A stretch of DNA of 64,000 nt from Vulcanimicrobiota bacterium. GTDB lineage: Bacteria > Vulcanimicrobiota > Xenobia > Xenobiales > JADMJV01. The DNA lies in assembly GCA_050250895.1 (NCBI GenBank), contig JBFWNU010000009.1, forward strand, positions 1 through 64,000, in the 5' to 3' direction. Shown in pieces: positions 2,076-53,240 of the stretch. The notes beneath the pieces are model-generated. The model was not told the DNA's origin. It saw nothing but the letters and a program-made list of their open reading frames with translations, and did no database searches. The position numbers and the translations under genes were made by a program. Positions within the stretch are counted from its first letter, which is position 1. Every line of letters starts with the position of its first letter.

Positions 2076-2259
2076 TCAACCCGGATGACGTGCAGCCGGG
2101 CCGCCGGATTGCGGCGATGGCGCCCCAAATGCAAGGAGCGGCCGCCGCGAGGAGCGGATAGTATCAAGGGTCATACTTGAGCACCGCAGCGGTAGCCGCG
2201 ACGCCGCAGTTGGGTGGGACAGCGCCGCAAGACAAGGTTCGGTCGTGCGTCAGCCGGGT
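2076..2259. repeat. Imperfect hairpin insertion 3 (184 bp, MITE-like) inside the RHS gene
   Basis: Terminal arms AACCCGGATGACG / CGTCAGCCGGGTT (12/13), inner arms TTGCGGCG / CGCCGCAA and TCAAG / CTTGA. Removing it joins GRLTGIR to SEVSQNNFDQRVGFDYD in frame. Confidence 0.75.
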
Positions 2260-27929: not shown

Positions 27930-30900
27930 CCGGGCTCGGCCACCACTACCAGGTTGCGGCCGCCGGTCTTGGCCTGGTAGAGGGCCGCGTCGGCCCGGGC
28001 GAGGATCGAGGCGAACGAAGTGTCCGCCGGCGTCAATTCGGCGATGCCGATGCTGATGGTGAAGCGAACCTTCTCGTCTCGAGCCTCGAGCTCGAGGGCC
28101 GCTACCGCCTGGCGCAGGCGCTCGGCCATGATGGCCGCGCCCTGAGCGTCGGTCGAAGGCATGGCGATAGCGAACTCCTCACCGCCCATGCGCCCGAAGA
28201 CCTCGCTAACTCGCAGCTGCGAGGCCACCACCCGTGCCAGAGCCCTGAGCACCTGGTCACCCACGTCGTGGCCGTAGCTGTCGTTGATCGTCTTGAAGTA
28301 GTCGGCGTCGAGCATGACAGCGGTCAAGGGTGAGGGATAGCGGCGCGAGCGTTGGAACTCTTGCTCGGCCAATTCGAGAAAACGGCGACGGTTGGCGGCT
28401 CCCGTCAAGCTGTCGGTGGTGGCCAGCACCCGCAATTCTTCTTGCACGCGGGTGCGCTCTTCGATCTCTTGACTAAGTTCGCGAGTGCGCTCGGCTACCC
28501 GTTGCTCGAGGGTATTGTAGAGCTGGGCGTTACGAATCGAGATGGCGGCCTGCGCGGCCAATAATCGTAGCAGGTCGAGCTGCTGGTCGGTGAAGGCCCC
28601 GGTGGTCAGATCGTTCTCGAGGTAGAGAACGGCACTGAGTTCGTTCTGCTGCTTGACCGGCAGGCAGAGGATCGAGCCGGTCGAGCGCGATTGGATATAG
28701 TCGTCCTGGCAAAACGTGCTGTCCTGGCTGGCGTGGTGCAAAATGACTGCCTCGCGCGTTCGGCGGACGTAGTGGATGACCGACTGGGGGCACTCGGCGT
28801 AATCGGCGGCCGGCAATTCGAGCGAGCGCAGTTGGATTTCGGTATCGACCCAACCCTCGCAGACCACCTGCAGACCGCCTTCGCTCTCGAGCAAGAGTAG
28901 GCCCCGCTGGGCGCCGGCCGTTTCCAACACCAGCCGCACCAGCGACTGCACCAGCTCGGCCAACACGATCTGACTCGAGATGGCGTGGGAAGCTCGGATG
29001 GCCGCCGCCAGGTCAAGCTCGTGGCCAAACGAGACGGTGGCCGTGGTGCCGCGGCGCCGGGCCGACATAAAGTGACGAAAGCCGGCCAGAGGCTCGGCGA
29101 ACTCCTTCTCGAGCGCCTCGGTCTTGGCCGCGGCTCCCCAACGGCCATAGAGGAAAATCGCTTGCAACAGGTAGCCCCGAGCCGGGGCCAGGTTGCCCAG
29201 GCTGTAGAGAAAGCGCCCCGCGAGTTCGTTGGCCAGGGCCTCGTCCTGAATAAACTGATGGTCGCGGGCCTGGGCGATGGCCGCCTCATACAGCTCCTGG
29301 GCTTCGCCGCGCCGGCCCTGCAGGCGGGCGCACTCGGCCTCGAGCAAAGAGACACGGTGAACGAAGTTGGCCGGGCAGCCTTGGGCCAACCCAGCCAAAA
29401 ACTGTAGATTGGGAGCCACCCGCGCCAGGCTGCTCTCGACCTCGTCCGGTCGGTCCAGGCGCAGAATGGTCAGGGCGCGGTACTGGTGCCAGGCCACCAC
29501 CTGGTAGGTTGCCTGCACCCCATCGGCATACTCGGCGTAGTGCTCGGCCCGTTCCAGCGCCTCTTCGAGGGCGCCGAAGTGGTAGCGGCTAATCAGGCCG
29601 GCCACGGCCACGCAGAAGACGGCTCCTCGGGCTTGATGCTGCAACATCCTGGCCAGGTGAGCTTCTTCGTCGTAGTGGTCGCCAGCCAGCCGAGCCGGAT
29701 TCGGCGAAGGCATCATCAGGTTGCGCACCAGCTGGGCCATCGGATAGGTGCAGGCCAGGGCCGGCCCCATCTTGTGATGCTCCATGACGGCCGTGTGGTG
29801 CTCGATGGTGGCGGCCAGTTCGAGCAGGTCGATGCCGGCCCAAAAGCTGTTGGCGATCTCGTTGTGCAAGCCCCAGCCGGCGTATTCCAGGTCACCGCAG
29901 TCGAGACTGAGACGATAGACCAGGCGATGGTTGTCGATGGCCCGACGCAAAGGCTCGAGATAGCCATTGACCACGCCATCGATGACGTGCAAGTTCTTGC
30001 ACTGATGGGAAGGGACATCCCAACGACGGCCTAGCCCGGCCGCCACCCCGGCCAGCTGGCGGGCGGCCTCGAGCTGATTCACCGAGACCAGCACCAGGGC
30101 CAACACCGAGAAGGCATAGACCCCGTCGGGGGAGAGCCCGTGGCGCAACGAGATCGAGACCATGTTGCAGCAGAGCATCGGCAGCAGCAGCGGGACGGCC
30201 AGATAGGCAGCGGCCATCACACCGTTCTGGATGCGCACCGCCGCCACCGCCTCGGCGTGCTCGGCGGCGGGCAGGGCCTCGAGGTCGTGCCCGCCGATCA
30301 TTCCCAGGGTCAGGGCCACCGCCGTCTGCACATCCTCGAAAGACGGGTTGGGGTCCATGCCAAAGCCTAACAGCTCGAGCACCTCGAGGGCCTGATAGAC
30401 CGCCTCGGGCAAGCGCTGCTGGGCGATGAGCGCCTGAATGCGAATCTCTTGACCTTCGACCCGGTCGAGCAGTTTGCCAGCCCGGCGAGCCACCACCTCC
30501 AGGCGCGCCTCCATCAGGTCGTAATAACCCCCCAGATAAGCCGCGCGGGCACCCTCCAGGTGGACGGCCAGAGCCAGTTCGTAGCGGCCTTCCCAGTCCT
30601 CTTCGGGCAAATGTTCGAAGGCCCGCAGATAATGCTGGTGGGCCGGTTCGAAAGCGGCCGAACGCAAGGCCCGCCGGCCGGCCTCGAGATTGAGTTCGGC
30701 CAGCTGGCGCCGTTCGTCGAGACCCACGAGCAAGGCGGCAGCCCGGTTCATGTGCTCGACCAGGGTGAACAGGGCGGTGGGGTCCTGGGAAGCCTCGGCC
30801 TGCAGCAAGCGAGCTACGCGCAGATGGATGTGGTTGGCCTGAGCAGGCTCGAGCATAGCATAGGCTGCTTGCTGCACCCGGTCGTGGGCGAAACGATAGC

Positions 30901-38335: not shown

Positions 38336-38875
38336 ATGAGAAAACTGCTCCCGGTCCTATTGCTGACTTTGCTCACCGGCGTGGTTGCGGCTCAGACGCG
38401 CCACTACGACCAGGTCAGGCACTTTTCCATCGAGTTGCCAGCCGGCTGGAGCCCCAGCACCATGCAGAACGCCGACTTCGCCATGAGCGATGGCAAATTG
38501 AGTCTTGGCGTATATACCCTCAACGATGCGGACCTGGCCAGCGCCGTGAGTCGCCTGGCCGAGACCTACAAGAAGCTGGGAGCCAAAGAAACGCTCAAGC
38601 AGGCCATCACCATCAACGAAGTGCCCGGCAACATCTCGGTCTGGGAAGGGGGCGGAGAGGCCCTCCTGTCGACCGTGCTGGTCAGCGGACAGGAGAAATT
38701 CTTGCTGTTGGGGACCTTTCCCAGCGGCTCGAGCAAGACCGACGCCGAGCGCATGGTGGTCATCTGCAAGTCGTTTCGCGTGGAAAGAGGGGCGGCACCC
38801 GTCGCGGCACCGCCCCCCAGTCAGCCGGCCACTCCCCCGCCGATCAGCCAACCGCCGGAAGAAGACCAGTTCTAG
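38336..38875 (+). CDS. Secreted hypothetical protein (PsbP/DcrB-like fold possible)
   Basis: Signal peptide; FSIELPAGW motif; SFRV near the C-terminus. Confidence 0.7.
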   Translation: MRKLLPVLLLTLLTGVVAAQTRHYDQVRHFSIELPAGWSPSTMQNADFAMSDGKLSLGVYTLNDADLASAVSRLAETYKKLGAKETLKQAITINEVPGNISVWEGGGEALLSTVLVSGQEKFLLLGTFPSGSSKTDAERMVVICKSFRVERGAAPVAAPPPSQPATPPPISQPPEEDQF

Positions 38876-41800
38876 CGAGCCACGTGATAGTCGGTGATGT
38901 AGAGGTGGGTGGTGTGGCGCCGGATCATATTCTCGACCATGCCTCGGTCCAGCCCTAGCAGCCCGATATCGGACAGGGTGTGGACGCGGCCAGGCTCGAC
39001 CAGCTGATCGCCGGCTAGCATGGCACCGGCGGTGCGGTGGTTGCCGTCCATCAGCAGATACTTGAAGCTCTCGCCGCCATTGATGGGAATCTCGAGCACC
39101 TCTTGCCCGTCCTTGAAGCCGTTGATGGCTTGCTTGGTTTTGCCCCAATTGACCACCGGGCCGGGAGCTCCCTGAGCGAAGACCATGTCGTCGATCTTCT
39201 TGGTGATGCCGCCACCGGTCGGCACCTCGCGTCGACCGGCGTAGCGGTCCACCGATTCCAGCATCTGGTCGACCAGCTGCTGGTGCTCGTCCCAGCTCTG
39301 CTGCTTGCCCACGAAGGGCGGAGGACGCTTGCCGGTGAGCCGCTCTTTGATGGTGGTCGGGCCGTTGACGAAGCCGTCCACGGTCTGGTTGGGATTGACC
39401 GCTTTCGACAACTTCATGTCCTGGGTCCCGGCCAGAATCGGGTCGAACAGCTCGCGGGCGGCTTCGCCGCTGCCGACTTGCTCGGCCACCTGAGTGAGCT
39501 GGCCGACCCGCTCGCTGAGCTGCTCTTTGAGGAACGGATCGGTCTTGAGCTGGTCTTTGAGCTGAGCGGCTTCGCGCGTGAGCATCGTCTGCATGTCGTC
39601 GCGCATGCTCTGGCGTGTGGCCTGATCGGCTCCGGCGTAAGCCTGGCCGAGTTCTTTGCGAAGATTCTCGTCTTTGAGCAGCTTCGATTGAGGATCGTTG
39701 AAGTCGAAGCGCTGGTTGGCCGGGCCATCGTCGACGTCGCGACCCAGCCGCGCGGGCCGGCCCTGTTCGACCGGACGAGGACCGTCCACGGTGTGCACGA
39801 CGCGCCCAGGCCCGCCGCCGGGAGGGGTCGGGTCGTAGTAGAACGAGGTGTTATCGAGGTTGCCCATATCGAGCCCTTTGCGAGGCAGCTCGCTGACGGG
39901 AAGCTCGGTGTGGCCGTAGGGGGGCTCGCTCTGGGTGAGGTGAACGGTATCTCCGTCGACCACGCCGCTGTCGTATTTCTGCACTCGCCCCACCAGGTCT
40001 TGAAGCTCATCGGCCGAGTAACGCTGGCCACCCAGGGTGACCTCGTGCAGGTCGCTCTGGCGGATGTCGCCCACAGCGGCCGAATGCTCTTGCTGTTTGA
40101 CCCAGGCGTCGCGCTCGGCCCCGGTCTTGGGCATCTTCTCCTGGGGCAGATAACGGCCCGGCATCCCCTGGGTGTCGAGCACGGCGAAGTTCTGGTCGTC
40201 GTTGAGGAAGCGCGGGTGAGTCTCGGTAGTGGGAGTGTATTTCGAGCTGCGGGCTTTGGCACTGCCATCGGCGAAAACGGTGGCTTCCAGGGCGTCCGGC
40301 GATCCGTCGGGGCCGCGGGCGGGGATGCCGTTGCCATCAAGGATGTTGGCGATGTCGTTGCCGTTGAGGGCGCGGTAGGCGATGCCCGCTTCGCGCGACA
40401 AGCGCACGGCTTCCTCTTTGCTGCCGGCCTTGAGGGCCTTCTCGATCTTGGCCTGGCGCTTGGGCGGAACGTCGCGTCCGAGCACAGCGCTGTCGTTGGC
40501 CGGGCCGGTCGGAGGCACCGCGTCGGCGGCGGCCGCCTCTTGGGCCTGGCGAGCGCGGATCTGGCCATCTTCGAGCCGGCTGAGGGCGGCGACATCCTGC
40601 GGCTGGCCGGTCTTGGGCTTGGGCTGCGACTTGAGGCGGTCGAAATAGTTGGCCACGAAATCGTGTCCGCCGGCTTCGGCCCGGTGCTCGGCCAGGCTGC
40701 TCTCGTAGGCTTGCCGGGCCTCGGCGATCTGCTCGGGGGAGGCGCCCTGCTCGCGCAACTGGCGCAGCTTGCCATAGGCCGCGTCGGCCTGGGACAGGGC
40801 GGCCGAGGCAGCCGCGTCGCCGCCGGCGGCCTGTTGGGCCAACACGGCGTGGTCGAGTTCGTGTCCGAACTCGTGGGCCGACACGCGACCGTTGCTATCC
40901 ACCGGCAGTTGAATCTGGGAGCGGCCGTTCTCGGTGATGGTCTGGGCCACATTGCCGGTGCCGATGTCGACGCCGTCGAGCATGTTGGGGTCAAGACCCC
41001 GCGACTGCAGATAGGCTGCCGCCTCGGAGCGCAGGTTGTCAGAGTCGAGGCGCAATTTGGAGGTCTCGGGGCTAAAGCCGCCCGCCGGAGCTTCACCACC
41101 GTGGGGCACCGGAGCATCCACCTTCGGGGCACGTAGGCGACTGGCCGCATCACCAGCGGTGCCAAAAGCCGGACCGAGAACGCCACCCACGGCCGCTCCC
41201 ATCTTGGCCTTCTCATGCGCTTCTCCCAGCGAGTTGCCGTCGATGACCGCCCCGGCGAAGGTGCTGCCGTAGCCGTCGGCGGCACCCTCGACAGCGTTGA
41301 GGCCGCGAGCGGCCAACCAGGTGCCGGCCCCGGCCGAGCGACCGGCCAGCAGAGTCTTCTCGGCCAAAGCAGCGGCCCGGCTCGTGCCCAGGGCCGACAT
41401 GGCGTTGACTCCGCCTTTGAAGAAATCGGTGGCGATGTTGCCCTGATACTGGCCACTGCCGGTGCCGGCTTCGAGAGCCTTCACTCCCACCTTGGTCAGC
41501 CCGCCGGCCAGCGGGGCGGCCACCAGCGAGGCTCCGCCGGTAACCGGAGCCAGCGCCAGGCCAGCCGATACCGAGGCCACATCCGAGATCCCCTCGACCC
41601 AGTTCTCTTGCGAGGTCTTATACTCGCCGATGCGCTGCTCGATGCCACCCAGTTCGCCGCGCAGCTTGCCCAGGCGCTTTTCATACTCCTGGCGGAATTC
41701 GGCGTCGGTGCCCTGGAAATTGGCCATATCCATGATGGCCTGGCGCGATTGGATGGCGCCGCCGATCTGGTTGCCGATGGCCCGGCTACCCAGGTTGGAG

Positions 41801-44800
41801 TCGATGACCCAGCCCCCGGGGCGTCCCAGTTCGTTCTTGACGCCGTCGGCGAAGTCGCCCACGATGCCCTGGTCGTCGACCACCTGGCGAAACTCCCGGT
41901 CGAGAGCGGCCGTCTGCTGGCCCACCCGGCCCAGGTCATAGGCCCGCGACAGCTTGCTCTTCATAGCGTCGTAGGCACCCGAATCGAGCTGGTTCTGCTC
42001 GCGCATCTGCTCGAGGGTAGACAGGCCGCGGGCCGCGTCGGTGGGGCTGATGGCCCGCATGTCGCGGTCCTGCAGGTCTTGCATGAAAGCCCCGTTGTTG
42101 ACTCCGTAGAACGGGCTGTCTTCCCACCAGCCATTCTGCTGATAGGCGGCTTCGCGCTGGGCGGTGGCTTCGGCCGTCTTCTGCTCGAAGGACTTGTCCA
42201 TCATCCGGTCCCCAGGAGCGGAGTAATTGTCCATCAGGTCAGTGTAAGAAATCTGGGCGCTGCCGGGCACCACGTCTCGGCGCAGAGCAGCTTCGACCTC
42301 TTCGACCTTGCCGGCTTTGAGGTCTTGCTCGAGCTGTTCGAGGCGCTGGTCGGACTTCTGCTGCCACTCGCCCAGCCGGCCCGCGTCTTCGGGTCGTTGC
42401 TGCGAACCCGTCTGCATCAGACGACCGGTTTCGTAGCGAGCCATCTGGATGCGCTCGCTGGCCACGGTGCCCATGACGCCCCGGCGCTCGTCGACCGACA
42501 TCGAGTCCCAGGCCTGACCGGCGGCCTGCTGCAGCTGCTGGTCACCGACCCGGGCCCATTCCCGATCGAGTTCGTCGCGATCGATGTTGGCGGCCGACTG
42601 CAACTCTTTGCGCTGGGCCTCGCGCACGCCATCCTCGCGCATACCCGCGAGCTGCTCGCGACTCAGGCGCTGGACCTCAGCCTGGTAGGCGTTCCACTGG
42701 CGATTCTGGGCGTTGTCCTGGGCGCTGGCCCGGGGGCCGGTGCGGGCTCCGCCGGTGGGCGGGTCGACCCCGTACTGCTGCCGGAAGGTCTCGCGGGCCT
42801 GGCTCTGCAGATCAGCCTGAGCCTGCTGCTGAGCCGCGAAGTAGTGCGGCATGTTCTCTTTCATCAGGCGCTCATACTCGGCCTGGACCTGGCGGCCTCG
42901 GCCCTGGGAGCCCTGCCCGCCCGACGGATACTTGGCTTCAGCCTGCTTCTTGAGCTTGGCGGCGGCCGCATCATAGCCGCCGTTCTGGGTGACGTAGTCC
43001 CGCTCGCTGGCAAACTGCCGATCGATCTGGGCCGACTGGCGTTGAGTGTAGCGCTCGGCGAAAGTGCTAGCGTCGACCGTGGCCGGAGTGTTGGCATTGC
43101 CGGCCTGATAGTCGGGATTGGGATACTGACCGTTGGCTTCGAGCGTGCGGGTGGCGAACTGCCGCTGCAAACCTTCGGGCTGGGTGCCGATGTGGGTCTG
43201 ATAGTTCTCGGTGGCCGAATTCTGGCGCACCATCCCGTTCATCTGCGGGCTGTAGCCGGGCGGGAAGACGGTGTTCTGGTCGTAGATGTCGCCCTGGGTG
43301 TTGTAGGCCTGCAGGTTGGCCTGGCTAAAATCGGCCCCGCGGGCATCGCCATAGACCGCCGGCTTGTCCCGCCGATTCTCGAACGGGTTGCCAAACTGCG
43401 AAGGCTGCCCTTGCCCGGGCGGCAATCCCAGGTGCTGGCGCAGCTCGGGGCTCATCTGGATGTCTCCCGGGGCGATGCCCCGACTTCTCAGGTCCTGATA
43501 GCCCTTCAGCTCTTTCTGCAGGGCCGGGGACGGCGGCTGGTTGCCGCCCGGGGCCGACACGGCTTGACCGGGACGCACCAGCTGAATCTCGCCGTTGCCC
43601 GCGAAGCTGAAGGGCAGCTGCTGGGTGGAGGGACGGTTCATGCTCTGGTCCACCGGGGCGCTGTCGAAGGCCTGTCCCACGCTGAGCTGCCCCGCCTGGC
43701 GCGACAGCTTCTTGCCACGGTCGACGATGGCTGCATCCATGGCTTCCATCTGCTGGCGCACCGAAGCCAGGTCTTGGGACTGGGAGCGGCGGTCTAGCCC
43801 TTGAGCCTCGTAGGCCTGATTGAGTTCACGCTGGCGCGCCTCGAGCGAACTGAGCTGACCCGAGAAGTTCGGGAACATCTGCGCGTCCTGGCCGGCCTGA
43901 TTGGCCCGCATCAAGACCTTGGCATCGTCGGCATTCTTGACCTGATCCATCTCGCGTCCGAAGACCTGGGTGGTGGGCCGCCCGTCGCGCAGGTCCTGGC
44001 GGGCCTGCAGCGTGATCTCAGAAGCCAGAGCCCCGTAGCGCTCGCGCTCCTGAGCACTATAATCCAGGGCTGACGGAGGCGGGCTGAACGGACTGACCGG
44101 CCGCCCGCCGTTCATGCGGCTCTCGAGTTCGCTGAAGTTGTTGCCCACGGTCATACCCTCGAGTTGGGCGAACTGGCCCAGCGAGGCGTTGAGTTGCTGG
44201 CTGTCGCGCTGAATGCCAAGCCGCTGGGCCATCAACGGTGTCTGGGCCTCGGCCAACAGAGCTCGCATCTCTTGCTGGTTCTGGTCGAACTTGGCCCGCT
44301 CGGCCGAGTTGGTGGGCGGCACCTGAGCGTCGAGTTCTTTCTGGAAATCGGCCGCCTGCTGAGCCGTGATGGGCCCATTCATACCAGCCGTCTCGACCCG
44401 GTAACCCAGGCTGCCGTGGGCATACTCGGACCCGTTGGCGCTCAGCAACTGCACCTGCCCGTCGGCCCAGCCGCGGATGGCCTGGCTCTGCTCCTCGGCC
44501 GAAGGCCGATCCTGGGTCGGATTCTGCTGGCCGTTGCCGTTGGGCTGGCCCGGCTGGGCGACCGGGTTTTGCTGACCGTTGCTATTGACCGGGTTGGCCT
44601 GACCGTTGCCGTTGGCTTGACCGTTGGCGGGCGGGTTTGCCTGGCCGTTGGCGGGGGGATTGGCCTGTCCGTTGGCTGGCGGGTTGGCCTGGCCGTCGGC
44701 TGGCGGGTTGGCCTGGCCGTTGGCGGGGGGATTGGCCTGTCCGTTGGCCGGCGGGTTGGCCTGGCCGTTGGCGGGGGGATTGGCCTGGCCGTTGGCGGGG

Positions 44801-45480
44801 GGATTGGCCTGTCCGTTGGCCGGCGGGTTGGCCTGGCCATTGGCCGGCGGGTTTGCCTGGCCGTCGGCGGGGGGGTTTGTCTGGCCGTTGGCTGGCGGGT
44901 TGGCCTGGCCATTGGCCGGCGGGTTGGCCTGGCCGTTGGCGGGGGGGTTGGCCTGGCCGTTGGCGGGGGGGTTGGCCTGGCCATCGGCTGGCGGGTTGGG
45001 CTGGCCATTGGCTGGCGGGTTGGCCTGGCCATTGGCCGGCGGGTTGGCCTGACCGTTGCCGTTGGCTTGACCGTTGGCGGGGGGATTGGCCTGACCGTTG
45101 CCGTTGGCTTGGCCCGGCTGGGCGGCGGGGTTTTGCTGACCGTTGCCGTTGGCCGCAGCTCCCCAACCACTGATGGCGCGACTCTGCTCGCGAGCCGATG
45201 GGCGGTTGGGGTCGCGGGGTTTGGCCTGGGGATTGGCTTTGGCTTTTTGACCCTGACCTGAAGCTTGAGGCTTGGTCTGCGGGCCCGACGACGACTGGTC
45301 GGCCTTCTTGGCCGGGGCGGCTTGCTTTGATTGCTGGCCGGTGGCCGGCTGATCGGCCTTCTTGGCCGCCGGGGCCTTCTTGGATTGCACTGCCGGACGA
45401 CGCTTTTGCGTCCTGGCTGCCCCTCCCGATTTGCGTGTCACCGGCCGCCTTGTCGGCGTTGTCTTACGTCTTACCCGCAT
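38872..45480 (-). CDS. Giant 2202-aa polymorphic-toxin-like protein
   Basis: Basic low-complexity N-terminus; ANPPANGQ repeats; helical core; Gly/Ala hydrophobic segment; HEFGH motif; ART-like region; C-terminal LLMDGNHR (ParB/Srx-like). Confidence 0.8.
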   Translation of the reverse strand: MRVRRKTTPTRRPVTRKSGGAARTQKRRPAVQSKKAPAAKKADQPATGQQSKQAAPAKKADQSSSGPQTKPQASGQGQKAKANPQAKPRDPNRPSAREQSRAISGWGAAANGNGQQNPAAQPGQANGNGQANPPANGQANGNGQANPPANGQANPPANGQPNPPADGQANPPANGQANPPANGQANPPANGQANPPANGQTNPPADGQANPPANGQANPPANGQANPPANGQANPPANGQANPPANGQANPPANGQANPPADGQANPPANGQANPPANGQANPPANGQANGNGQANPVNSNGQQNPVAQPGQPNGNGQQNPTQDRPSAEEQSQAIRGWADGQVQLLSANGSEYAHGSLGYRVETAGMNGPITAQQAADFQKELDAQVPPTNSAERAKFDQNQQEMRALLAEAQTPLMAQRLGIQRDSQQLNASLGQFAQLEGMTVGNNFSELESRMNGGRPVSPFSPPPSALDYSAQERERYGALASEITLQARQDLRDGRPTTQVFGREMDQVKNADDAKVLMRANQAGQDAQMFPNFSGQLSSLEARQRELNQAYEAQGLDRRSQSQDLASVRQQMEAMDAAIVDRGKKLSRQAGQLSVGQAFDSAPVDQSMNRPSTQQLPFSFAGNGEIQLVRPGQAVSAPGGNQPPSPALQKELKGYQDLRSRGIAPGDIQMSPELRQHLGLPPGQGQPSQFGNPFENRRDKPAVYGDARGADFSQANLQAYNTQGDIYDQNTVFPPGYSPQMNGMVRQNSATENYQTHIGTQPEGLQRQFATRTLEANGQYPNPDYQAGNANTPATVDASTFAERYTQRQSAQIDRQFASERDYVTQNGGYDAAAAKLKKQAEAKYPSGGQGSQGRGRQVQAEYERLMKENMPHYFAAQQQAQADLQSQARETFRQQYGVDPPTGGARTGPRASAQDNAQNRQWNAYQAEVQRLSREQLAGMREDGVREAQRKELQSAANIDRDELDREWARVGDQQLQQAAGQAWDSMSVDERRGVMGTVASERIQMARYETGRLMQTGSQQRPEDAGRLGEWQQKSDQRLEQLEQDLKAGKVEEVEAALRRDVVPGSAQISYTDLMDNYSAPGDRMMDKSFEQKTAEATAQREAAYQQNGWWEDSPFYGVNNGAFMQDLQDRDMRAISPTDAARGLSTLEQMREQNQLDSGAYDAMKSKLSRAYDLGRVGQQTAALDREFRQVVDDQGIVGDFADGVKNELGRPGGWVIDSNLGSRAIGNQIGGAIQSRQAIMDMANFQGTDAEFRQEYEKRLGKLRGELGGIEQRIGEYKTSQENWVEGISDVASVSAGLALAPVTGGASLVAAPLAGGLTKVGVKALEAGTGSGQYQGNIATDFFKGGVNAMSALGTSRAAALAEKTLLAGRSAGAGTWLAARGLNAVEGAADGYGSTFAGAVIDGNSLGEAHEKAKMGAAVGGVLGPAFGTAGDAASRLRAPKVDAPVPHGGEAPAGGFSPETSKLRLDSDNLRSEAAAYLQSRGLDPNMLDGVDIGTGNVAQTITENGRSQIQLPVDSNGRVSAHEFGHELDHAVLAQQAAGGDAAASAALSQADAAYGKLRQLREQGASPEQIAEARQAYESSLAEHRAEAGGHDFVANYFDRLKSQPKPKTGQPQDVAALSRLEDGQIRARQAQEAAAADAVPPTGPANDSAVLGRDVPPKRQAKIEKALKAGSKEEAVRLSREAGIAYRALNGNDIANILDGNGIPARGPDGSPDALEATVFADGSAKARSSKYTPTTETHPRFLNDDQNFAVLDTQGMPGRYLPQEKMPKTGAERDAWVKQQEHSAAVGDIRQSDLHEVTLGGQRYSADELQDLVGRVQKYDSGVVDGDTVHLTQSEPPYGHTELPVSELPRKGLDMGNLDNTSFYYDPTPPGGGPGRVVHTVDGPRPVEQGRPARLGRDVDDGPANQRFDFNDPQSKLLKDENLRKELGQAYAGADQATRQSMRDDMQTMLTREAAQLKDQLKTDPFLKEQLSERVGQLTQVAEQVGSGEAARELFDPILAGTQDMKLSKAVNPNQTVDGFVNGPTTIKERLTGKRPPPFVGKQQSWDEHQQLVDQMLESVDRYAGRREVPTGGGITKKIDDMVFAQGAPGPVVNWGKTKQAINGFKDGQEVLEIPINGGESFKYLLMDGNHRTAGAMLAGDQLVEPGRVHTLSDIGLLGLDRGMVENMIRRHTTHLYITDYHVAR
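44617..45090 (-). repeat. 24-bp coding tandem repeat (ANPPANGQ x18 plus one extra unit)
   Basis: Units in phase at 44617-45048, then an ANGNGQ spacer and a further unit at 45067-45090. Confidence 0.95.
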
Positions 45481-45620: not shown

Positions 45621-45636
45621 ACTTCCACCTGGAAGT
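45621..45636. repeat. Dispersed copy of the HNH-associated palindrome
   Basis: ACTTCCACCTGGAAGT, one mismatch from ACTTCCAGCTGGAAGT; intergenic. Confidence 0.6.
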
Positions 45637-46566: not shown

Positions 46567-47869
46567 TCTTTCGTTGCATCCACATGAAGTAAGGCAATCC
46601 GGCTGCGATCAGTCCCAGACCTACGGTCGATTCGAAAGGACGCTCCCAGAAGTTCAGCCCGAGAATCCACAGCAGACTGGCCAGAAAAATGGCGGGGGTG
46701 GCCGGATAACCCCAGCACTGGTAGGGTCGCTCGCGCTCGGGCTGGCGCGCCCGGAGCACGTAGATGGCTAGCGCGGTCAGGGCCGAGAAGACCATGATCC
46801 CGAAGATGACATAATTGGTCAGCAGGTCGAACAGACTCTCCTTACCTCTCAGATACTCGCCGGCCACCACCAGCACGGTGCTCCACACCGAATAGGCGAT
46901 GATGGCCCGGTGAGGCGTGGCGTAACGCTCGTGGACGGTAGCGAAAGCCCGGGGAGCCAGGCCGTCGCGGGCCATGGCGAAGAAGATACGCGGGCCGCAC
47001 AACAACCCCGCGTTGAGGGTGCCGAGCACCGAGATCAGCAAGAAGAGGTTGAGCAGTCGGCCCCCGATGGGGCCGGCCAGACGACTGACCATATCGGCAG
47101 CCGGAGTGGGCGAGGCGGCCAGCTCTGCCATCGGCATACTGGCGTGAATGCCCAGATTGATAGCCATGTACAAAACCATGGTCAGGCCCACCCCGAACAC
47201 CAGTGCCCGCGGCACCTGGCGTTGGGGTTCCTGCATCTCCTCGGCCACAGTAGTCACGTTGTACCAGCCGTCGTAGGCCCACAGCACGGCCAGGAAGGCA
47301 GCTGCCCAGGCGGGGGTCGGGGGAATCGAACGACTGGCGAGAAAGCTCTCCGAGCCGAGATAGAGCAGTGGCAGTCCGGTGACCAGCACCAGGCCCGAGA
47401 CCTTGAAAAAGAGGGCGATGTCCTGTAGGCGGCCCGAGCCTTCGACTCCCACCACGTTCCAACCAGCCAGCAGGGCAATGATCACGATGGCCACCGCTGG
47501 CAAGGTGGCTCCCTGACAGCCCAGCAGGGTGGCCGCCGCCACAGCCAGAGCGCCGGTCGAGGCCGAGCGAGCGAAGAAGAAGTCGGTCCACCCGGCCAAA
47601 AAGGCCGGGCATCGCCCCCAGGCTTCGCGCAGATAGACATAAGCCCCGCCCGACTCGGGAATCATCGCCGCCAGCTCGGCATAGACCAGCCCCCCGAGCA
47701 GCGAGATGATGCCGCCGGCCAGCCACACCAACAAAATCAGATCGAGCCGTCCCAGGCTCTTGGCCATGACGTTCTGCTTGAAGAAAATGCCCGAGCCGAC
47801 CATCGTGCCCACCACGATGGCCACCCCCTGGCGCAGGCCCAGGGCCCGGCGCAGCCCCGACTCAGACAT
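46544..47869 (-). CDS. APC-family amino acid permease
   Basis: VGTMVGSGIF, YAELAAMIPESGG.Y.YL and WAYDGW motifs; about 12 TM segments. Confidence 0.93.
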   Translation of the reverse strand: MSESGLRRALGLRQGVAIVVGTMVGSGIFFKQNVMAKSLGRLDLILLVWLAGGIISLLGGLVYAELAAMIPESGGAYVYLREAWGRCPAFLAGWTDFFFARSASTGALAVAAATLLGCQGATLPAVAIVIIALLAGWNVVGVEGSGRLQDIALFFKVSGLVLVTGLPLLYLGSESFLASRSIPPTPAWAAAFLAVLWAYDGWYNVTTVAEEMQEPQRQVPRALVFGVGLTMVLYMAINLGIHASMPMAELAASPTPAADMVSRLAGPIGGRLLNLFLLISVLGTLNAGLLCGPRIFFAMARDGLAPRAFATVHERYATPHRAIIAYSVWSTVLVVAGEYLRGKESLFDLLTNYVIFGIMVFSALTALAIYVLRARQPERERPYQCWGYPATPAIFLASLLWILGLNFWERPFESTVGLGLIAAGLPYFMWMQRKNALSAAD

Positions 47870-49542
47870 TACAGCTTCTTGGCGATCTTGGTCCAGGAAT
47901 CGCGCAGCGGCACGATGCGATTAAAGACCAGTTTGTCGGCGTTGCTATCGGGATCCACCACGAAGTAGCCCTGACGCTCGAACTGGTAGCGGTTGCCCGG
48001 GCTGGTGCCGGTCAGGGCCGGTTCGACCCTGGCCTCGGGCCTTACGACCAGCGAGTCCTCGGCGATCAGATCGAGCCAGTTGTCGGCGCTGTCGGGGCGC
48101 GCGTCGGTAAACAGGCAGGAGTAGAGCCTGACTTCGGCGGGCAGGCTGTGACTGGCCGAAACCCAATGGATAGTGCCTTTGACCTTCCGACCATCGGGCG
48201 AAGAACCGCCGCGGGTCTCGGGGTCGTAGGTGCAGCGCAGCTCGACGATCTCGCCCTGCTCGTCTTTGATCACCTCGTTGCAGGTGATGTAGTAGGCTCG
48301 CCGCAGGCGCACCTCGCGTCCGGGAGCCAGCCGGAAGAACTTCTTGGGCGGGTCTTCCATGAAGTCTTCGCGCTCGATGTAGATCTCGCGGGTGAAAGGC
48401 ACCTCGCGCGAGCCCATGGCCGGGGGATCGTCGGGATAATAAGGAGCCTCGAACTGCTCGACCTGCCCCTCGGGATAGTTGGTAATCACGACCTTGAGCG
48501 GGTCAAGCACGCCCATCACCCGTTCGGTGGTCGTGTTGAGGTGATTGCGCACGCTGTCTTCCAGCAGGGCCAGCTCGATCCACTGGGTCTTTTTGGTGAT
48601 GCCGACCCGGTCCACAAAGTCGCGGATCGCCTCGGGTGTGTAGCCGCGCCGGCGCATGCCCCGCAGGGTCGGCATACGCGGGTCGTCCCAGCCAGCCACC
48701 CGCTTTTCTCGCACCAGCTGGATCAGCTTTCGCTTGCTCATCACCGTGTAGTTGAGGTTGAGCCGACTGAACTCGATCTGCTGCGGACGGCAGGCCGTGC
48801 CGACCTTCTCGAGCACCCACTCGTAGAGGGGCCGATTGTTCTCGAACTCGAGACTGCACAGCGAGTGGGTGATGCCCTCGATGGCGTCCGACAGGCAGTG
48901 GGTGTAGTCATACATCGGATAGATGCACCACTTGTCGCCACTGCGGTGATGGTGGGCCTTGCGAATGCGATACAAAGTCGGGTCGCGCATGACCACGTTG
49001 GGAGAGGCCATGTCGATCTTGGCGCGCAAGACCCGGGCCCCGTCTTCGAACTCGCCCGCCCGCATGCGCTCGAACAGCTCGAGATTCTCTTCGAGGCTGC
49101 GATTGCGATAGGGGCTTTCCCGGCCCGGTTCGGTGAGGGTCCCTCGATACTCGCGGATCTGGTCGGCGGTCAGGTCGTCGACATAGGCGTGACCGGAACG
49201 GATCAGGCCGACCGCATACTCATAGAGCTGATCGAAATAGTCCGAGGCGTGGTATTCGTGGTCGCCCCAATCCCAGCCCAGCCAGCGGATGTCCTCGGCG
49301 ATGGCCTCGACATACTCGGTGTCTTCCTTGAGCGGGTTGGTATCGTCAAAGCGAAGATGACAACGACCGGCGTAGTCTCGGGCGATGCCGAAATTGAGAC
49401 AGATGGCCTTGGCGTGGCCGATATGCAGATAGCCGTTGGGCTCGGGAGGAAAGCGAGTGACCACCTGGCGGTGTTTACCCGAGGCCAGGTCGGCATCGAT
49501 AATCTGGCGGATGAAGTTGGTGGAGGTTTCGACGGTAGACAT
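47869..49542 (-). CDS. glnS: Glutamine--tRNA ligase
   Basis: [35 protein letters not shown] and FERQGYF motifs; ATG at 49542. Confidence 0.97.
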
Positions 49543-49606
49543 TGGAAGGCCGTTCGGCGCCGCCAACCCCTTTCCTCGACCCCCGGCCGATGGTATCATC
49601 CCCACA

Positions 49607-49909
49607 ATGAGCCAGCGCCCCTGTCCCACCTGCGGCCAGCTTCTGCCCGACGCCGCCACCCGTTGCGAGTGCGGCGCTCGCCTGGGGGGAGTATCGCCCA
49701 CGGTGAGCCTGTTTCTGCTGGGCTTTTTGCCCATGGTGATCGGCCTCTACGTCTTGCGCTACGGCAACTGGCGTCACTACGATCCGCCCTATTACCTGGC
49801 CGTCCTGGCCGTGGGCGTCGGATTTATCATCAGCGTCTACCTGATGGTCCAGGCCGGCGGCAAGCGCAAGCCCCCTCCGGCCGAGGGGGATCACCGCTCG
49901 GGTCCGTAA
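49607..49909 (+). CDS. Small membrane protein with an N-terminal zinc ribbon
   Basis: CPTC...CECG followed by two TM helices; TATCAT-N7-ATG. Confidence 0.75.
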
Positions 49910-50038
49910 AGGAAAGGGCCCCGCTCTTCACAGCGCGGAACCTCGATATGGCCACAGGGCAGGCCTCGGTATTGCGGATAGTCCGCCTGACACCCGGCGG
50001 CGGAGTGGCCGCTCCTACAATACAGCGTATAGCACCCA

Positions 50039-51220
50039 TCAGCCTGAGCGTGACCTGGTCCGCCGACGCTGCGCCTTATCCCGGGCGGCCTTCCACTCGG
50101 GTCGATTTGCAAAGTCTTTCTCGTGCGCGTTGGCGTGGCAACCCGGACACAACAACTCCAAATCTTCCAGTCGATGCTGCCGAGTTTCGGACCAGGCCCG
50201 AACGTGATGCACTACCAGATTGCCCTCAGAGCACGAACATCGCTCACAGCGGCCAAAAGCGCGAGCATAGACCGCTCGCACCAACCCCACCGGCAGCCCG
50301 GGCCGACCCTTAGACCGACTCGGCAGTAGCGGCAACTGTTCGGCCTGAGTACTTCCAGCTGGAAGTACAGCCTGGGGACAGGCCACCACGATGCCGGTTT
50401 GCTTCATCGCCTCGTCAACCGCCTCGGGCTCGGCCGGCAAGAGTCCGCGATCGGTATCATAGAAGCCTTCGCCGGTCACACCGTTCACGTGAACGATGAC
50501 CTGATGACGCACTTTGCTGCGGTTGTCGGCCGAGGCCAGCAGGGCCCTGCTCATCTCGGCCACGGCCGTCTCCTGGCTGACGCGCTTGCCCCGGCGGGCC
50601 TCGACCAGTCTCTTGGCCTGCTCATAGATAGCATACTCCTCGGGGGGCAGCAGCAGAATAACCTTTCGTAACTTCGGCGCCTCCGGAACGGCAGGCGGCG
50701 CGGGTTGAACTGGCCTCGCGGGTTGCTCGGTGAAGGTCAACTCGGGCTGACTCTGGCGAGCCTCGAGCGAAGCTTGCAAAGCCTGGCCACGCTTGTGTTG
50801 GGTGGGAGTCAGAGCCACGGCGCGCTCGACTGCCTGGGCCTTGTTCTTCAGCGCAAACTCGAGCATCTCGGCCTCGTTGTCGGGGGTGGTGATCCGCTTG
50901 AGAGCGCGGGCTTTGCTCCAGCAGAGCCTCCCGTCGCGAAAGGCTTCCGAGACGAGGGGCAGTTGCTCGAAAACCCTGGCCAAACTGAGGAGTTCGCCGG
51001 CCTTCTGGGGATGCAGGTTGAGGTGATGGATAGCGTAGCCAACGGTGCTACCACAGCCCATCTGCCGATACAGTCCGCTGCGCTCGGTAGCCAAGAGGTG
51101 GGCGGCCAGCTCCCATTCGCAGCCAAAGGAGCGCTTGCTCGCCTGGCGGTTTCTCTGGTGGAGCTCCTGGTGAGAAAGCTGTTGCAGGGAGTGGGAAAAT
51201 CCTGACAGAGTTGTAGACAT
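50039..51220 (-). CDS. HNH endonuclease with a DUF222-like helical N-terminal region (393 aa)
   Basis: RAFGRCERC..NLVVHHVRAW...LELLCPGCHANAH; N-terminal LPLVSEAFRDGRLCWSKAR motif typical of DUF222/13E12-type proteins; GGAGG RBS before ATG 51220. Confidence 0.88.
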   Translation of the reverse strand: MSTTLSGFSHSLQQLSHQELHQRNRQASKRSFGCEWELAAHLLATERSGLYRQMGCGSTVGYAIHHLNLHPQKAGELLSLARVFEQLPLVSEAFRDGRLCWSKARALKRITTPDNEAEMLEFALKNKAQAVERAVALTPTQHKRGQALQASLEARQSQPELTFTEQPARPVQPAPPAVPEAPKLRKVILLLPPEEYAIYEQAKRLVEARRGKRVSQETAVAEMSRALLASADNRSKVRHQVIVHVNGVTGEGFYDTDRGLLPAEPEAVDEAMKQTGIVVACPQAVLPAGSTQAEQLPLLPSRSKGRPGLPVGLVRAVYARAFGRCERCSCSEGNLVVHHVRAWSETRQHRLEDLELLCPGCHANAHEKDFANRPEWKAARDKAQRRRTRSRSG

Positions 51221-51504
51221 CAGCAGCCCTCCGAGGCGAAGAAGAATCAAGCAATGATCCTATTTTACTCAAGATTAGCCGCCGAATCAACGCAACGAAA
51301 CGGCTTGGTTGTGGGGTTTAAATGGCGCCTCACCGGTGGCCGCGAGAACGGTTTCCAGTGAAAAAATGACGGCGCCAACCAGTTTCTTGTGCGGATGACT
51401 GACAGGCGCCCTTCAGGGCTCAGGGCGCCAAGTTTGGATAGCACGATCTCCAGGGCAACTCCCCAGTTCACAAATATTAGGATATCACAACATTTGATCT
51501 GGCG

Positions 51505-52690
51505 GTGGTTACTTCCAGCTGGAACTCCGCGGCGGGTCCGCGGCCAACAATCCGGGGGGTTTCGGAGAACGAGTCTACTTCCAGCTGGAAGACCGCGGCC
51601 CCGCGGCGGGTCCTGAAGTTCGCCGCCCGGGCGACCGGCGAGCGGGTCCGCGACCAACAATCCGGGGGATATGGGAGAGCGAGTGTACTTCCAGCTGGAA
51701 GACCGCCGCCCCAAGCCCGAGCCGGGTTCGGCGAATCGCGCAAACCCAGGGCTCGCCGCCCGAGCCCGCCCCCCCAGAGGCTCGCCGCCCGGGCCACCGG
51801 CCGCCAACACCCCGGCGTGGTATCGGAGTGCGAGTGCAATTCCAGCTGGAAGTCGCGGGCCCAGCGGCGGGTTCTCAAGTTCGCCGCCCGGGACCACCGC
51901 GAGCGGGTCCGCGGCCACAAGCCCGGGCCGGTTTCGGCGAGCGCGCAAACCCAGGGCTCGCCGCCCGAACCCGTCCCCGCCCCCCGGCGAGCGAGTCCGT
52001 GGTCCGGCTGGAATCCTTCGCCTGGCCGAGCCAGGGTTGAACAATCGCGCCGACTCTCGGGGCCGCCGCCCGGGCCACCGGCCGCCAACACCCCGGCGTG
52101 GTATCGGAGTGCGAGTGCAATTCCAGCTGGAAGTCGCGGGCCCAGCGGCGGGTTCTCAAGTTCGCCGCCCGGGCCACCGGCGAGCGGGTCCGCGATCAAC
52201 CCCGCGGGGTATCGGAGAGCGAGTGTACGTCCCGCTGGAAGACCGCCGCCGCAAGCCCGAGCCGGGTTCGGAGAGCGCGCAAATTCCCAGGGCTCGCCGC
52301 CCGGGCCATCGGCGAGCGGAGCCGCGGCCAACAACCCCGCGGGCTATCGGAGTGCGAGTCTACTTCCAGCTGGAAGACCGGTGGGTTCTCAAAGTTCGCC
52401 GCCGGGACCACCGCGAGCGGGTCCGCGGCCACAAGCCTGGGCCGGGTTCGGCGAGCGCGCAAACCCAGGGCTCGCCGCCCGAACCCGTCCCCCAGAGTTC
52501 GCCCCCCGGGGAGCGAGTCCGTGGTCCGGCTGGAATCCTCCGCCTGGCCGAGCCAGGGTTGAACAATCGCGCCGACTCTCGGGGCCGCCGCCCGTGCGGA
52601 GGCTGAGGAGCGGGAGTCTACTTCCAGCTGGAAGATCGCCGCTCGGGTCATCGGCGAGCGGAGCCGTGGCCAACAACCCCGCAGGCGGCT
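51505..52690. repeat. Modular GC-rich repeat array with TTCCAGCTGGAA palindromic cores
   Basis: Exact cores at 51513, 51579, 51689, 51840, 52121, 52364 and 52622; degenerate cores at 52002, 52229 and 52524; most are preceded by GAG(A/T)GCGAGT; spacing 66-162 bp, filled with shared sub-modules. Confidence 0.92.
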
Positions 52691-52696
52691 AGGCGC

Positions 52697-53050
52697 CTAG
52701 GCGGCTAACCCGCGAGCGCCGAGCCAGTGGACCAGGCCGCTCTGGCCGGGGTTGAAAGAGATGCCCACTACGTGGGCGGGGCTGCCGCCGACTGGCTGCT
52801 GCCAGACGGGCCAGCCGCGCATCGGCACTTCGGTGTCATCGAGGTGAAGGACCAGCTCCAGTTCGCGCTCTGCTTCCAGACGATGCTCGCTGACGAGCCT
52901 GAGCCCGGTGGCCGAAATGTTGACACCGAAGCCTTGCACTTGACGGTCGTCCAACTTGATAGCGACAGGAAAGTTGTAGGCGAGACGAGTGGCGATTCGG
53001 CGATTTTCACAGCCGGGCAGCGCCTTTTGTTTGCGCTTTTTCTTTTTCAC
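52697..53050 (-). CDS. PilZ-domain protein (c-di-GMP receptor)
   Basis: ENRRIATR (RxxxR) and NISATG motifs; GGAGG before GTG 53050. Confidence 0.88.
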   Translation of the reverse strand: MKKKKRKQKALPGCENRRIATRLAYNFPVAIKLDDRQVQGFGVNISATGLRLVSEHRLEAERELELVLHLDDTEVPMRGWPVWQQPVGGSPAHVVGISFNPGQSGLVHWLGARGLAA

Positions 53051-53240
53051 GAAACCTCCAGTTTTGCGGGTAATCTGTTGGGCGCTAAACAACCACCCAA
53101 TCTTCCCCATTCACCGCTTTGCGGCTTATGAGAAAAATGATACACCAATTAGTTTCCTATAATCAATGTTTGGGGCAAAATTTAACAACCCCGCACAGAG
53201 CAAAGGCTCAGACGCTCTCCGAAGCGAACCGAGGGGGCCT

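Follow-up and report, generated by a model that had tools for sequence, protein, structure and literature searches.

The palindromic repeats beside the HNH nuclease gene described here are probably the binding sites of the encoded protein, because its modelled N-terminal domain resembles the palindrome-binding domain of ParB and Noc; our confidence in this is moderate, because everything rests on a single locus. The gene (50039..51220, minus strand, 393 codons plus stop, an ORF matching Pfam DUF222 and HNH) lies in a 64-kb stretch of DNA of an uncultured soil-type bacterium, hereafter the window, next to a non-coding mosaic array (51513..52686, plus strand, 72-75% GC). A fuller reading is proposed tentatively, with a likelihood a little short of even: the locus would pair a lineage-specific DUF222-HNH nuclease gene with clustered sites that its protein recognises and that the HNH domain would nick or cut.

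The palindrome TTCCAGCTGGAA occurred exactly eight times in the window, all inside 2.3 kb, with no exact copy elsewhere in the 64 kb. One copy was in the HNH gene (start 50353) and seven were in the array, at P0 (51513..51524), P1 (51579..51590), P2 (51689..51700), P3 (51840..51851), P5 (52121..52132), P7 (52364..52375) and P9 (52622..52633). Three further array copies were degenerate, P4 (52002..52013) and P8 (52524..52535) reading GTCCGGCTGGAA and P6 (52229..52240) reading GTCCCGCTGGAA. With one mismatch allowed, the window gave nine matches, the only addition being at 45623, against 0.18 expected from dinucleotide-preserving shuffles, and nine matches were reached in none of 100 shuffles. 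Perfect 12-bp palindromes of any kind were found at 36 positions, eight of which were TTCCAGCTGGAA, and the runner-up occurred twice. The leader GCGAGTNNANTTCCAGCTGGAAG, searched at up to three mismatches, accompanied seven array copies (P1, P2, P3, P5, P6, P7 and P9) and the gene copy, where 0.01 occurrences were expected. Across nine array units the majority-base fraction was 0.94 in the 12-bp core and 0.64-0.69 in the flanking blocks of 12-16 nt; the flanks are drifting around a preserved core. The only matches to array sequence elsewhere in the window were perfect stretches of 17-18 nt that fell on the in-gene palindrome, and the link between gene and array is therefore real. These counts bear out the first-pass annotation, which had described ten array copies, seven of them exact, most with a leader, spaced irregularly by 66-162 bp and beginning about 290 bp upstream of the HNH start. 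The successive start-to-start distances were 66, 110, 151, 162, 119, 108, 135, 160 and 98 bp. The probable ATG was set at 51220-51218 by the MSS.. starts of the homologues, which places the first array palindrome 293 bp upstream.

The gene has GGAGGG 6-7 nt ahead of this ATG and a sigma-70-like promoter candidate at 51262..51290 (minus strand), where a consensus scan found TTGATT and TAAAAT separated by 17 nt, a match of pattern only at 9 of 12 consensus positions. Residues are numbered here on the 394-residue translation of 50039-51223, one higher than counting from the ATG. The Pfam HNH family (PF01844) matched residues 326-368 (coding region 50120..50248, minus strand) at 29.2 bits against a cutoff of 21.4, corresponding to a beta-beta-alpha-metal nuclease domain. 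N-terminal to it, DUF222 (PF02720) matched residues 21-155 at 25.4 bits, barely above its cutoff of 24.4 and covering only positions 3-136 of the 306 in the profile. With both families above cutoff and the family multicopy, the earlier assignment to the repeat-type DUF222-HNH genes stands. Seven residues of the nuclease domain (C326, H339, H340, C359, C362, H363 and H367) were invariant in all 20 aligned family members, and the best profile matches of the domain included the HNH domains of IscB and McrA (E 1e-3). PHROGs matches were to HNH families only, the plasmid collection gave only HNH-domain matches on two Bradyrhizobium plasmids, and no relatives were found in phages. The neighbours of the locus were PilZ, a small zinc-ribbon-like ORF and GlnRS, and PADLOC assigned neither the gene nor the neighbouring genes to a defence family. 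No ParA-type ATPase was present among 44 further window ORFs scanned with Pfam, and no HUH/Y1 (IS200/IS605-like) transposase adjoined the repeats, the adjacent gene carrying DUF222 and HNH only.

The copy inside the gene is an extended palindrome, GTACTTCCAGCTGGAAGTAC (50349..50368), perfect over 20 bp as first annotated, which encodes V-L-P-A-G-S-T (residues 286-292) on the minus strand. It lies in a low-confidence linker (residues 276-307, pLDDT below 50) that was modelled as disordered. All eight codons from 285 to 292 end in A or T, compared with 28% in the whole gene, and runs of at least eight such codons appeared once in 14,676 control codons. Given the peptide LPAGS, encoded by CTTCCAGCTGGAAG, the probability of exactly these codons was 3.5e-6. 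This codon anomaly is a DNA-level constraint. Among 15 close paralogues, the majority residue of the LPAGS columns was found in 15, 14, 15, 15 and 13 sequences, compared with 9, 5, 8, 4 and 7 for the five preceding columns, and an insertion followed LPAGS in 3-4 of the 15. Judged at the protein level, the genetic code would permit an intact 12-mer in 14 of the 15. The conservation of this peptide island, which is indirect evidence for a conserved palindrome, suggests that the in-gene copy is old and has been kept. The linker that holds it was absent from three relatives of 45% identity (P0020, P0021 and P0024).

The N-terminal half of the protein was modelled as an all-helical domain beginning at residue 6 (residues ~1-157, coding region 50750..51220, minus strand). 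The domain-only AlphaFold2 model had a pLDDT of 88.7 and a pTM of 0.75, and its best 12 PDB matches in Foldseek were all DNA-binding regions of Noc, Spo0J or ParB, led by the Noc DNA-binding domain on its site (6y93_A; TMq 0.52, TMt 0.73, rmsd 3.0, probability 1.00, E 0.19). Below these twelve, the probability was at most 0.6 until more Noc and ParB chains appeared, and the PDB matches of the full-length model also belonged to the ParB/Noc family. The resemblance of the predicted fold is clear, but the Foldseek E-values are weak, the best being 0.19. By sequence no ParB was detected, as Pfam at a relaxed threshold returned DUF222 only and a PDB profile search returned HNH proteins only; the CTP-binding ParB/Srx domain was likewise not found, with no ParB-type Pfam family at E up to 10. 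In a viral structure library the best match of the domain had an E of 5.5e-4; many matches were unnamed, four were DUF3102 proteins and three were named ParB, Spo0J or partition proteins, which is compatible with a ParB-like model and adds no function to it. The ESM Atlas gave no usable match. Homodimer prediction scored 0.78, compared with 0.00 for the best of three controls; of proteins solved as one-chain pairs, 20 of 30 reached this level, as did 1 of 23 solved as single chains, counts that apply only approximately because a custom alignment was used. The runs agreed in at least 85% of contacts with a partner pLDDT of at least 61, and the predicted interface was symmetric, formed by residues 5-103 and 183-232. 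By its predicted ParB/Noc-like fold and symmetric dimer, the HNH protein is a plausible reader of the palindrome. According to PMC7383237, ParB and Noc domains bind 16-bp palindromic sites as two-fold dimers, parS being TGTTTCAC-GTGAAACA and NBS TATTTCCC-GGGAAATA.

In the mechanism that we infer, the N-terminal helix-turn-helix domain would pair into a two-fold symmetric dimer and recognise (C)TTCCAGCTGGAA(G), a palindrome of 12-14 bp, in double-stranded DNA. The ten sites, seven of them intact, along 1.2 kb directly upstream of the promoter would be the cognate site cluster, and one further site would be kept within the gene, in the stretch coding for the disordered linker. Tethered by this linker, the C-terminal HNH domain would most likely nick or cut at or beside the bound sites, with sister or paralogous copies serving as templates for repair of the breaks. 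Such cutting and repair would account for the duplicated blocks of the array, for the indel hotspot beside the palindrome in the gene and for a family that is multicopy and spreads like an element. Against this reading stand the weak Foldseek E-values and the absence of ParB from the sequence-profile matches. The letters of the half-site resemble parS and NBS only loosely. Eight intact targets next to and within the nuclease's own gene would put the host at risk unless the enzyme were weak, regulated or a nickase. Finally, a symmetric site explains neither the repeat of about 55 nt on one side of the palindrome nor the motif TCGCCGCCCGRR.

The array fills the space from the PilZ stop codon to the HNH promoter region, with palindromes spanning 51513-52633, and on the left the repeated DNA begins at P0. 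Several modules (repeat families D1-D7), all pointing the same way, form a mosaic that includes recently duplicated blocks of 131 nt and about 210 nt; Tandem Repeats Finder did not report the array. A recent duplication lies within 51783..52194 (plus strand), where 51783-51913 and 52064-52194 are 97% identical, and further pairs were 51865-51978/52379-52492 (91%) and 51978-52075/52500-52597 (97%); these duplications belong to families D2, D5 and D7. Each palindrome is also accompanied, on one side, by about 55 nt of repeated sequence. A second one-directional motif, TCGCCGCCCGRR, was present in 12 copies.

Alternatively, the array could be an intergenic mosaic repeat of this genome that is independent of the gene and comparable to REP/BIME, MIRU or satellite repeats; its reader, if it has one, would be another factor. 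The HNH gene would then have landed beside the array, and insertion or gene conversion would have given it one palindrome. Like BIMEs, the array combines several modules and has sub-repeats able to form hairpins; a second directional motif is present, the conserved one-sided leader would be unexpected for a symmetric protein site, and the linker with the in-gene copy is missing from P0020, P0021 and P0024. Against this, the remaining ~62 kb of the window contained no array module, conservation of the peptide island extends over 15 paralogues, and the predicted fold and symmetry of the protein fit a palindrome. When 185,579 species-representative genomes were scanned for the leader joined to the palindrome, GAGTNNANTTCCAGCTGGAAG, 14 loci in unrelated taxa gave a single match each; these were treated as noise because about 17 were expected by chance by our own estimate. 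An independent repeat is considered unlikely.

Binding without cutting, which we regard as unlikely, accounts for the same binding evidence, namely the fold, the dimer and the conserved core. The palindromes would serve as operators or as a sink through which the protein represses or titrates itself, possibly by looping or by a ParB-like nucleoprotein complex over the promoter that holds a potentially toxic nuclease low, and the array would have no role in mobility. The sites flank the promoter candidate, with one 293 bp before the ATG and one in the coding sequence, and the problem of self-cleavage disappears. However, ten sites over 1.2 kb far exceed the needs of autoregulation, the invariance of the nuclease residues in 20 of 20 members argues that catalysis is under selection, and neither the multicopy family nor the block duplications are explained.

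Transcription of the array into guide or decoy RNAs for the HNH protein, in the style of CRISPR, OMEGA/IscB or TIGR-Tas, is very improbable. It was suggested by a repeat array adjoining a nuclease gene whose HNH domain matches IscB among its best hits (9k2z_A at E 1e-3 in the PDB profile search), but the likeness was confined to the HNH domain: Pfam and NCBIfam found no other IscB part, RuvC included, and guided_IscB in NCBIfam scored 28.7 bits against a cutoff of 175. All eight array segments, on both strands, folded no better than shuffles (z from -0.87 to +0.79), Rfam gave no family at E up to 1, HEARO included, and no terminator-like sites were found inside the array. The units are spaced by anything from 66 to 162 bp, the would-be spacers repeat each other, and the N-terminal domain is predicted to be of a double-stranded-DNA-binding kind. 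Of the nuclease-plus-repeat system put forward in the first-pass annotation, the tie between gene and array and a plausible palindrome reader have survived, while the structured guide or decoy RNA has not. That the array is a repetitive or decayed protein-coding gene can be set aside as extremely improbable, for although long ORFs are open in several frames (395 codons at 51505-52692, plus strand), its GC at the three codon positions (0.71, 0.70 and 0.76) carries no coding signal and never falls at the second position towards the 0.44-0.48 of the window's real genes (0.62-0.73 and 0.72-0.82 at the first and third), its units, whose spacings are not divisible by three, stand in different frames, and it has no Pfam matches and no homologues of the ORF of either strand. 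The homologue searches comprised exhaustive HMMER against 1.84 billion representatives for the plus-strand ORF and word-indexed searches for the plus-strand ORF (proteins of 217-692 aa) and the minus-strand ORF at 51477-52334 (proteins of 156-499 aa), with no match in any; blastn of the array against plasmids and phages also gave none.

Several known systems share features with the proposed pairing of nuclease and recognition sites. In the plasmid systems SopB-sopC and KorB-OB, several sites are clustered beside the gene of the binder. The modelled DNA-binding fold, a dimer on a spacer-less palindrome and a site cluster beside the gene would all liken the HNH locus to ParB-parS and Noc-NBS. 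It differs in that the protein lacks the ParB/Srx CTPase domain and has HNH in place of the ParB dimerisation domain, and in that the gene is chromosomal and multicopy, has no ParA-like neighbour among those scanned and is accompanied by sites of different letters. With REP13E12 of the Actinomycetota it shares the DUF222 plus HNH architecture and multiple copies within genomes, although the family is from a different phylum and its DUF222 match is marginal, ending at position 136 of the 306-position profile. No flanking palindrome array was mentioned for REP13E12 in the literature covered. In a 2026 preprint (PMC13061034), the REP13E12 (DUF222-HNH) loci of M. tuberculosis are among the most often gene-converted, with 87 events, and loci of this kind are without defined function. 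As in REP-RAYT systems, a nuclease-type gene adjoins a mosaic cluster of short palindromic repeats. RAYTs are HUH/Y1 enzymes that act on single-stranded hairpins, whereas the protein here is an HNH enzyme with a binding domain that appears to be of the double-stranded-DNA type, its palindrome is loop-free and without fold signal, and no dispersed copies were found in 64 kb. Modular free-standing homing endonucleases of the I-HmuI and I-TevI type likewise carry a nuclease on a flexible linker to a sequence-specific helical DNA-binding domain, as predicted here, and are multicopy and selfish-looking. Those enzymes are monomers on asymmetric sites and reside in introns or phage genomes; the HNH protein differs by its predicted dimer, its palindrome, the intact sites beside and inside its gene and the lack of phage relatives among those searched. 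IscB-omegaRNA, CRISPR-Cas9 and TIGR-Tas resemble the locus in HNH similarity and in the repeat array beside the gene. The locus differs from them in that RuvC, structured RNA and Rfam matches were not found and its repeats and spacers do not alternate regularly.

DUF222-HNH genes of the 13E12 type are common and occur in multiple copies, and the locus offers two concrete handles on their function. The first is the predicted ParB/Noc-like DNA-binding fold of the DUF222 N-terminal part, of which full-text literature searches found no mention; the second is the 12-20 bp palindrome as a candidate DNA ligand. Together they make the recognition target of these nucleases a question that straightforward assays of binding and cutting could answer. 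Should the nuclease indeed act on the sites beside and within its gene, a selfish gene would have a new route to its own conversion and to changes in copy number. A more general version, which we think quite unlikely, is that DUF222-HNH genes are protein-guided selfish nuclease modules whose ParB-fold domain reads a private palindrome in a flanking landing-pad array and in their own reading frame. Because the palindrome is in both places, every gene copy and every array would be a substrate for nuclease-triggered, paralogue-templated repair. If true, this would amount to a new nuclease-plus-repeat partnership, a double-stranded-DNA counterpart of REP/RAYT, and would give a mechanism for REP13E12-type loci being hotspots of gene conversion.

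The HNH family was named only from Vulcanimicrobiota MAGs and comprised 14 paralogue clusters at 75-89% identity, with one copy in the window; the multicopy call rests on the coincidence that five "longest contig" values were each common to 2-3 different clusters. A family-alignment pattern search of genome contigs gave 84 pattern matches, none confirmed as a relative. The one distant DUF222-HNH gene inspected on a Rhodococcus plasmid had neither an array nor a repeated palindrome, which counts against the main reading with a sample of one. No look-alikes of the array ORFs were found in protein sets that do contain paralogues, which is weak evidence against arrays at paralogous loci because such ORFs may go uncalled. 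Recombination among the paralogues was examined by part-wise identities and by Fisher tests comparing the middle region with the remainder of the protein; 2 of 105 pairs passed the Bonferroni threshold. Gene conversion is not claimed from these pairs, since the difference maps showed the changes clustering in linkers, and they are therefore read as rate variation.

The HNH gene, a DUF222-HNH nuclease gene of 393 codons on the minus strand (50039-51220), and the array of palindrome-bearing repeats upstream of it (51513-52686; 1.2 kb, 72-75% GC in a window of 63.9% GC) both lay in an interval bounded on the array side by a PilZ-domain gene (minus strand, 52697-53110) and on the other by a small zinc-ribbon-like ORF (plus strand, 49607-49909). 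The HNH gene had a promoter-like site of its own at 51262-51290, and its ATG was preceded by GGAGGG. The wider neighbourhood was ordinary chromosome, with genes for GlnRS, an amino-acid permease, kinases, and WD40 and ankyrin proteins; a scan of 44 further ORFs turned up no integrase, transposase or ParA. The first-pass annotation had described the 12-bp palindrome TTCCAGCTGGAA as repeated, and eight exact copies were indeed found in 64 kb, all between 50353 and 52633. Perfect 12-bp palindromes stood at 36 positions of the window; 8 of these were this word, and every other palindrome occurred at most twice. With up to one mismatch allowed, nine matches were observed against a shuffle expectation of 0.18, a number reached in 0 of 100 shuffles. 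The reported array of ten sites spaced 66-162 bp apart was recovered once three degenerate copies were included, and the 20-bp perfect palindrome said to lie within the coding sequence was present at 50349-50368. The nuclease-plus-palindrome locus is real, statistically solid and unusual. A 721-codon open frame without a Pfam match (48148-50313, plus strand) lay opposite the minus-strand GlnRS gene (47869-49734) and extended over the HNH 3' end; in a GC-rich genome such as this, it is most likely a shadow ORF.

The assignment of the gene to the DUF222-HNH kind stood, since the protein scored above the cutoff of Pfam HNH (29.2 bits; cutoff 21.4) and barely above that of DUF222 (25.4 bits; cutoff 24.4), with the DUF222 match confined to the first 136 positions of a 306-position profile. 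By these profile scores it formally belongs to this architecture, if marginally. The nearest proteins, aligned over at least 94% of the length with 75-89% identity, formed 14 clusters, and those with a name were all labelled "MAG: Vulcanimicrobiota bacterium". Five source-sequence size values were each common to two or three of these clusters, which points to several diverged copies within single genomes; the window itself held one copy, and two scans of a genome-contig collection returned no relatives. Remoter relatives, 37-48% identical, came from metagenome sources. The HNH-motif histidines and zinc-binding cysteines were invariant in 20 of 20 aligned members, so the nuclease is probably active. 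The one distant DUF222-HNH gene examined, on a Rhodococcus plasmid, had neither an array nor a repeated palindrome, so the Pfam family does not share the array as a general trait.

The full-length model of the HNH protein was confident in its domains only. When a domain-only model of residues 1-158 (pLDDT 88.7, pTM 0.75) was compared with the PDB, the 12 best matches were all Noc, Spo0J or ParB DNA-binding regions, led by 6y93_A, the Noc DNA-binding domain on its site (TMq 0.52, TMt 0.73, rmsd 3.0 Å, 111 columns, probability 1.00). In the full-length model, the N-terminus again matched the Noc/Spo0J/ParB family, and the HNH part matched McrA or Cap5. Among predicted viral structures, the best E-value was 5.5e-4, and the matches were mostly unnamed, with four DUF3102 and three named ParB, Spo0J or partition proteins. 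Because the E-values of the PDB matches were weak (best 0.19) and sequence profiles did not find ParB in the HNH protein, the modelled N-terminal domain is rated as resembling ParB/Noc at the level of the fold, not as a member. ParB and Noc domains are described in PMC7383237 as two-fold dimers on 16-bp spacer-less palindromes, with the consensus sites TGTTTCAC-GTGAAACA and TATTTCCC-GGGAAATA, respectively. The HNH protein passed the homodimer prediction with a score of 0.78 (best of three controls, 0.00), a mark that 20 of 30 proteins solved as one-chain pairs, and 1 of 23 solved as single chains, also attained; these counts apply only roughly, as an alignment of our own was used. At least 85% of the contacts agreed between runs, the partner pLDDT was at least 61, and the predicted interface was symmetric, involving residues 5-103 and 183-232. 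Prediction thus supports a dimeric HNH protein.

The array, for which all observations come from one locus, was a one-directional mosaic instead of a simple tandem repeat and was absent from the Tandem Repeats Finder output. Ahead of each palindrome stood a conserved leader of about 55 nt (in an alignment of the leaders), and after each palindrome three or four other modules were combined in differing ways. Over nine units, the majority fraction was 0.94 in the 12-bp core versus 0.64-0.69 in the flanks on both sides, and the repeated DNA had its left edge at the first palindrome. In recent block duplications, the copies were 97% identical over 131 nt and 91-97% identical over about 210 nt. A further short motif, TCGCCGCCCGRR, had 12 copies in the array, on the plus strand every time (51620-52647), and matched 17 times in the whole window with at most one mismatch, versus 6.1 expected. 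Elsewhere in the window, the array modules recurred only as 17-18 nt around the in-gene palindrome. Many TCGCCGCCCGRR copies were able to pair with a downstream CGGCGA into a short hairpin. Between the array and the candidate HNH promoter, a spacer of lower GC contained a GC-rich hairpin with an 8-bp stem (GGCGCCCT, 9 nt, AGGGCGCC; 51405-51433); a lone half-site, TTCCAG, was found at 51353-51358, and an 8-nt tandem repeat (AGGCGGCT, 3.1 copies, 52683-52707) overlapped the PilZ stop codon, where the array ends on the right.

On the coding strand, the in-gene palindrome read V-L-P-A-G-S-T (residues 286-292, counted on the 394-residue translation), and the surrounding segment 276-307 had a pLDDT below 50 in AlphaFold2. 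The five LPAGS columns were conserved in 13-15 of 15 close paralogues, and the five columns ahead of them kept the majority residue in just 4-9. Directly after LPAGS lay an indel hotspot, with a 9-residue insert in 3-4 of the 15. This insert (columns 314-322 of the family alignment, after residue 291) ended in an LPAGS-like peptide, e.g. ..LPAET, and it looks as if the palindrome region was tandemly duplicated inside the gene in these paralogues. By the genetic code, the intact 12-mer was compatible with the peptide in 14 of 15. The palindrome spanned eight consecutive A/T-ending codons (285-292), an ending found in 28% of codons gene-wide; a run of this length occurred once in 14,676 control codons, and the chance of LPAGS in exactly these codons was 3.5e-6 under the codon usage of the window. 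From a conserved peptide in a variable disordered linker, the rare codons and the identity with the array palindrome, we infer that selection on the DNA word best explains why the palindrome was kept. Were the array an unrelated intergenic mosaic repeat and the HNH gene a mere neighbour, the extra modules, the one-sided leader and TCGCCGCCCGRR would be accommodated, but neither the lack of copies elsewhere in the window nor the conserved LPAGS island would fit, and this explanation appears unlikely.

A predicted symmetric dimer, a private palindrome that is intact in the gene and in 7 of the 10 array units, and a conserved tethered nuclease point to a protein that binds these sites. In the reading we tentatively favour, which is slightly more apt to be wrong than right as a whole, a ParB/Noc-like N-terminal dimer would bind the TTCCAGCTGGAA sites, the array would be a cluster of cognate sites laid out like a plasmid centromere, and the HNH domain on its flexible tether would probably nick or cut near bound sites. 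Breaks would be repaired from sister or paralogous copies, which would explain the array block duplications, the in-gene indel hotspot and the multicopy family. A test of the paralogues for mosaicism gave no convincing result. According to PMC13061034, the related REP13E12-type loci of M. tuberculosis belong to those with the most frequent gene conversion and are still described as having no defined function. A reading in which the protein binds only to repress or titrate itself would draw on the same binding evidence and avoid the problem of self-cleavage, but ten sites would be extravagant and the conserved catalytic residues would be ignored; we consider it quite improbable. In its working, the locus would most resemble ParB, as a binder with a cluster of sites, but it lacks two defining ParB features, a CTPase domain and a ParA partner. 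Identity with REP/RAYT was rejected (wrong enzyme class, no hairpins, no dispersed copies seen), as was a CRISPR, OMEGA or TIGR-like identity. No description of the arrangement was found in literature on DUF222/HNH, 13E12, Eremiobacterota and ParB-like HNH, a search in which few subscription journals were included. The locus yields a new, testable hypothesis on what the DUF222 domain reads.

The suggestion that the array is transcribed into structured guide or decoy RNA did not hold up and is very doubtful: the array matched no Rfam family up to an E-value of 1, folding both strands of eight segments gave structures no more stable than shuffles (z -0.87 to +0.79), and no terminator-like sites were found within it. 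A coding repeat can practically be dismissed, as GC was almost equal at the three codon positions, the units lay in differing frames, the long open frames had no Pfam match, and the open frames had no homologue either among 1.84 billion representatives searched exhaustively or in two word-indexed searches; the array is non-coding.

Elsewhere in the window, a 24-nt unit (8 codons) was repeated in tandem about 20 times at 44515-45160, a region with strong GC and AT skew, within a 2202-codon ORF (38872-45480, minus strand) that matched no Pfam family. Two genes encoded large signalling proteins, a Ser/Thr kinase of 1680 residues with AAA_16, GAF and GGDEF (27908-32950, minus strand) and a kinase of 768 residues with AAA_16 (6931-9237, plus strand), and nearby were WD40, ankyrin (two genes) and LIM-domain proteins, a eukaryote-like domain set. 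Near the start of the window, a short ORF with an RHS-repeat match (E 6e-11; 2164-2658, minus strand) may be a piece of a larger gene of the RHS or toxin-cassette type.
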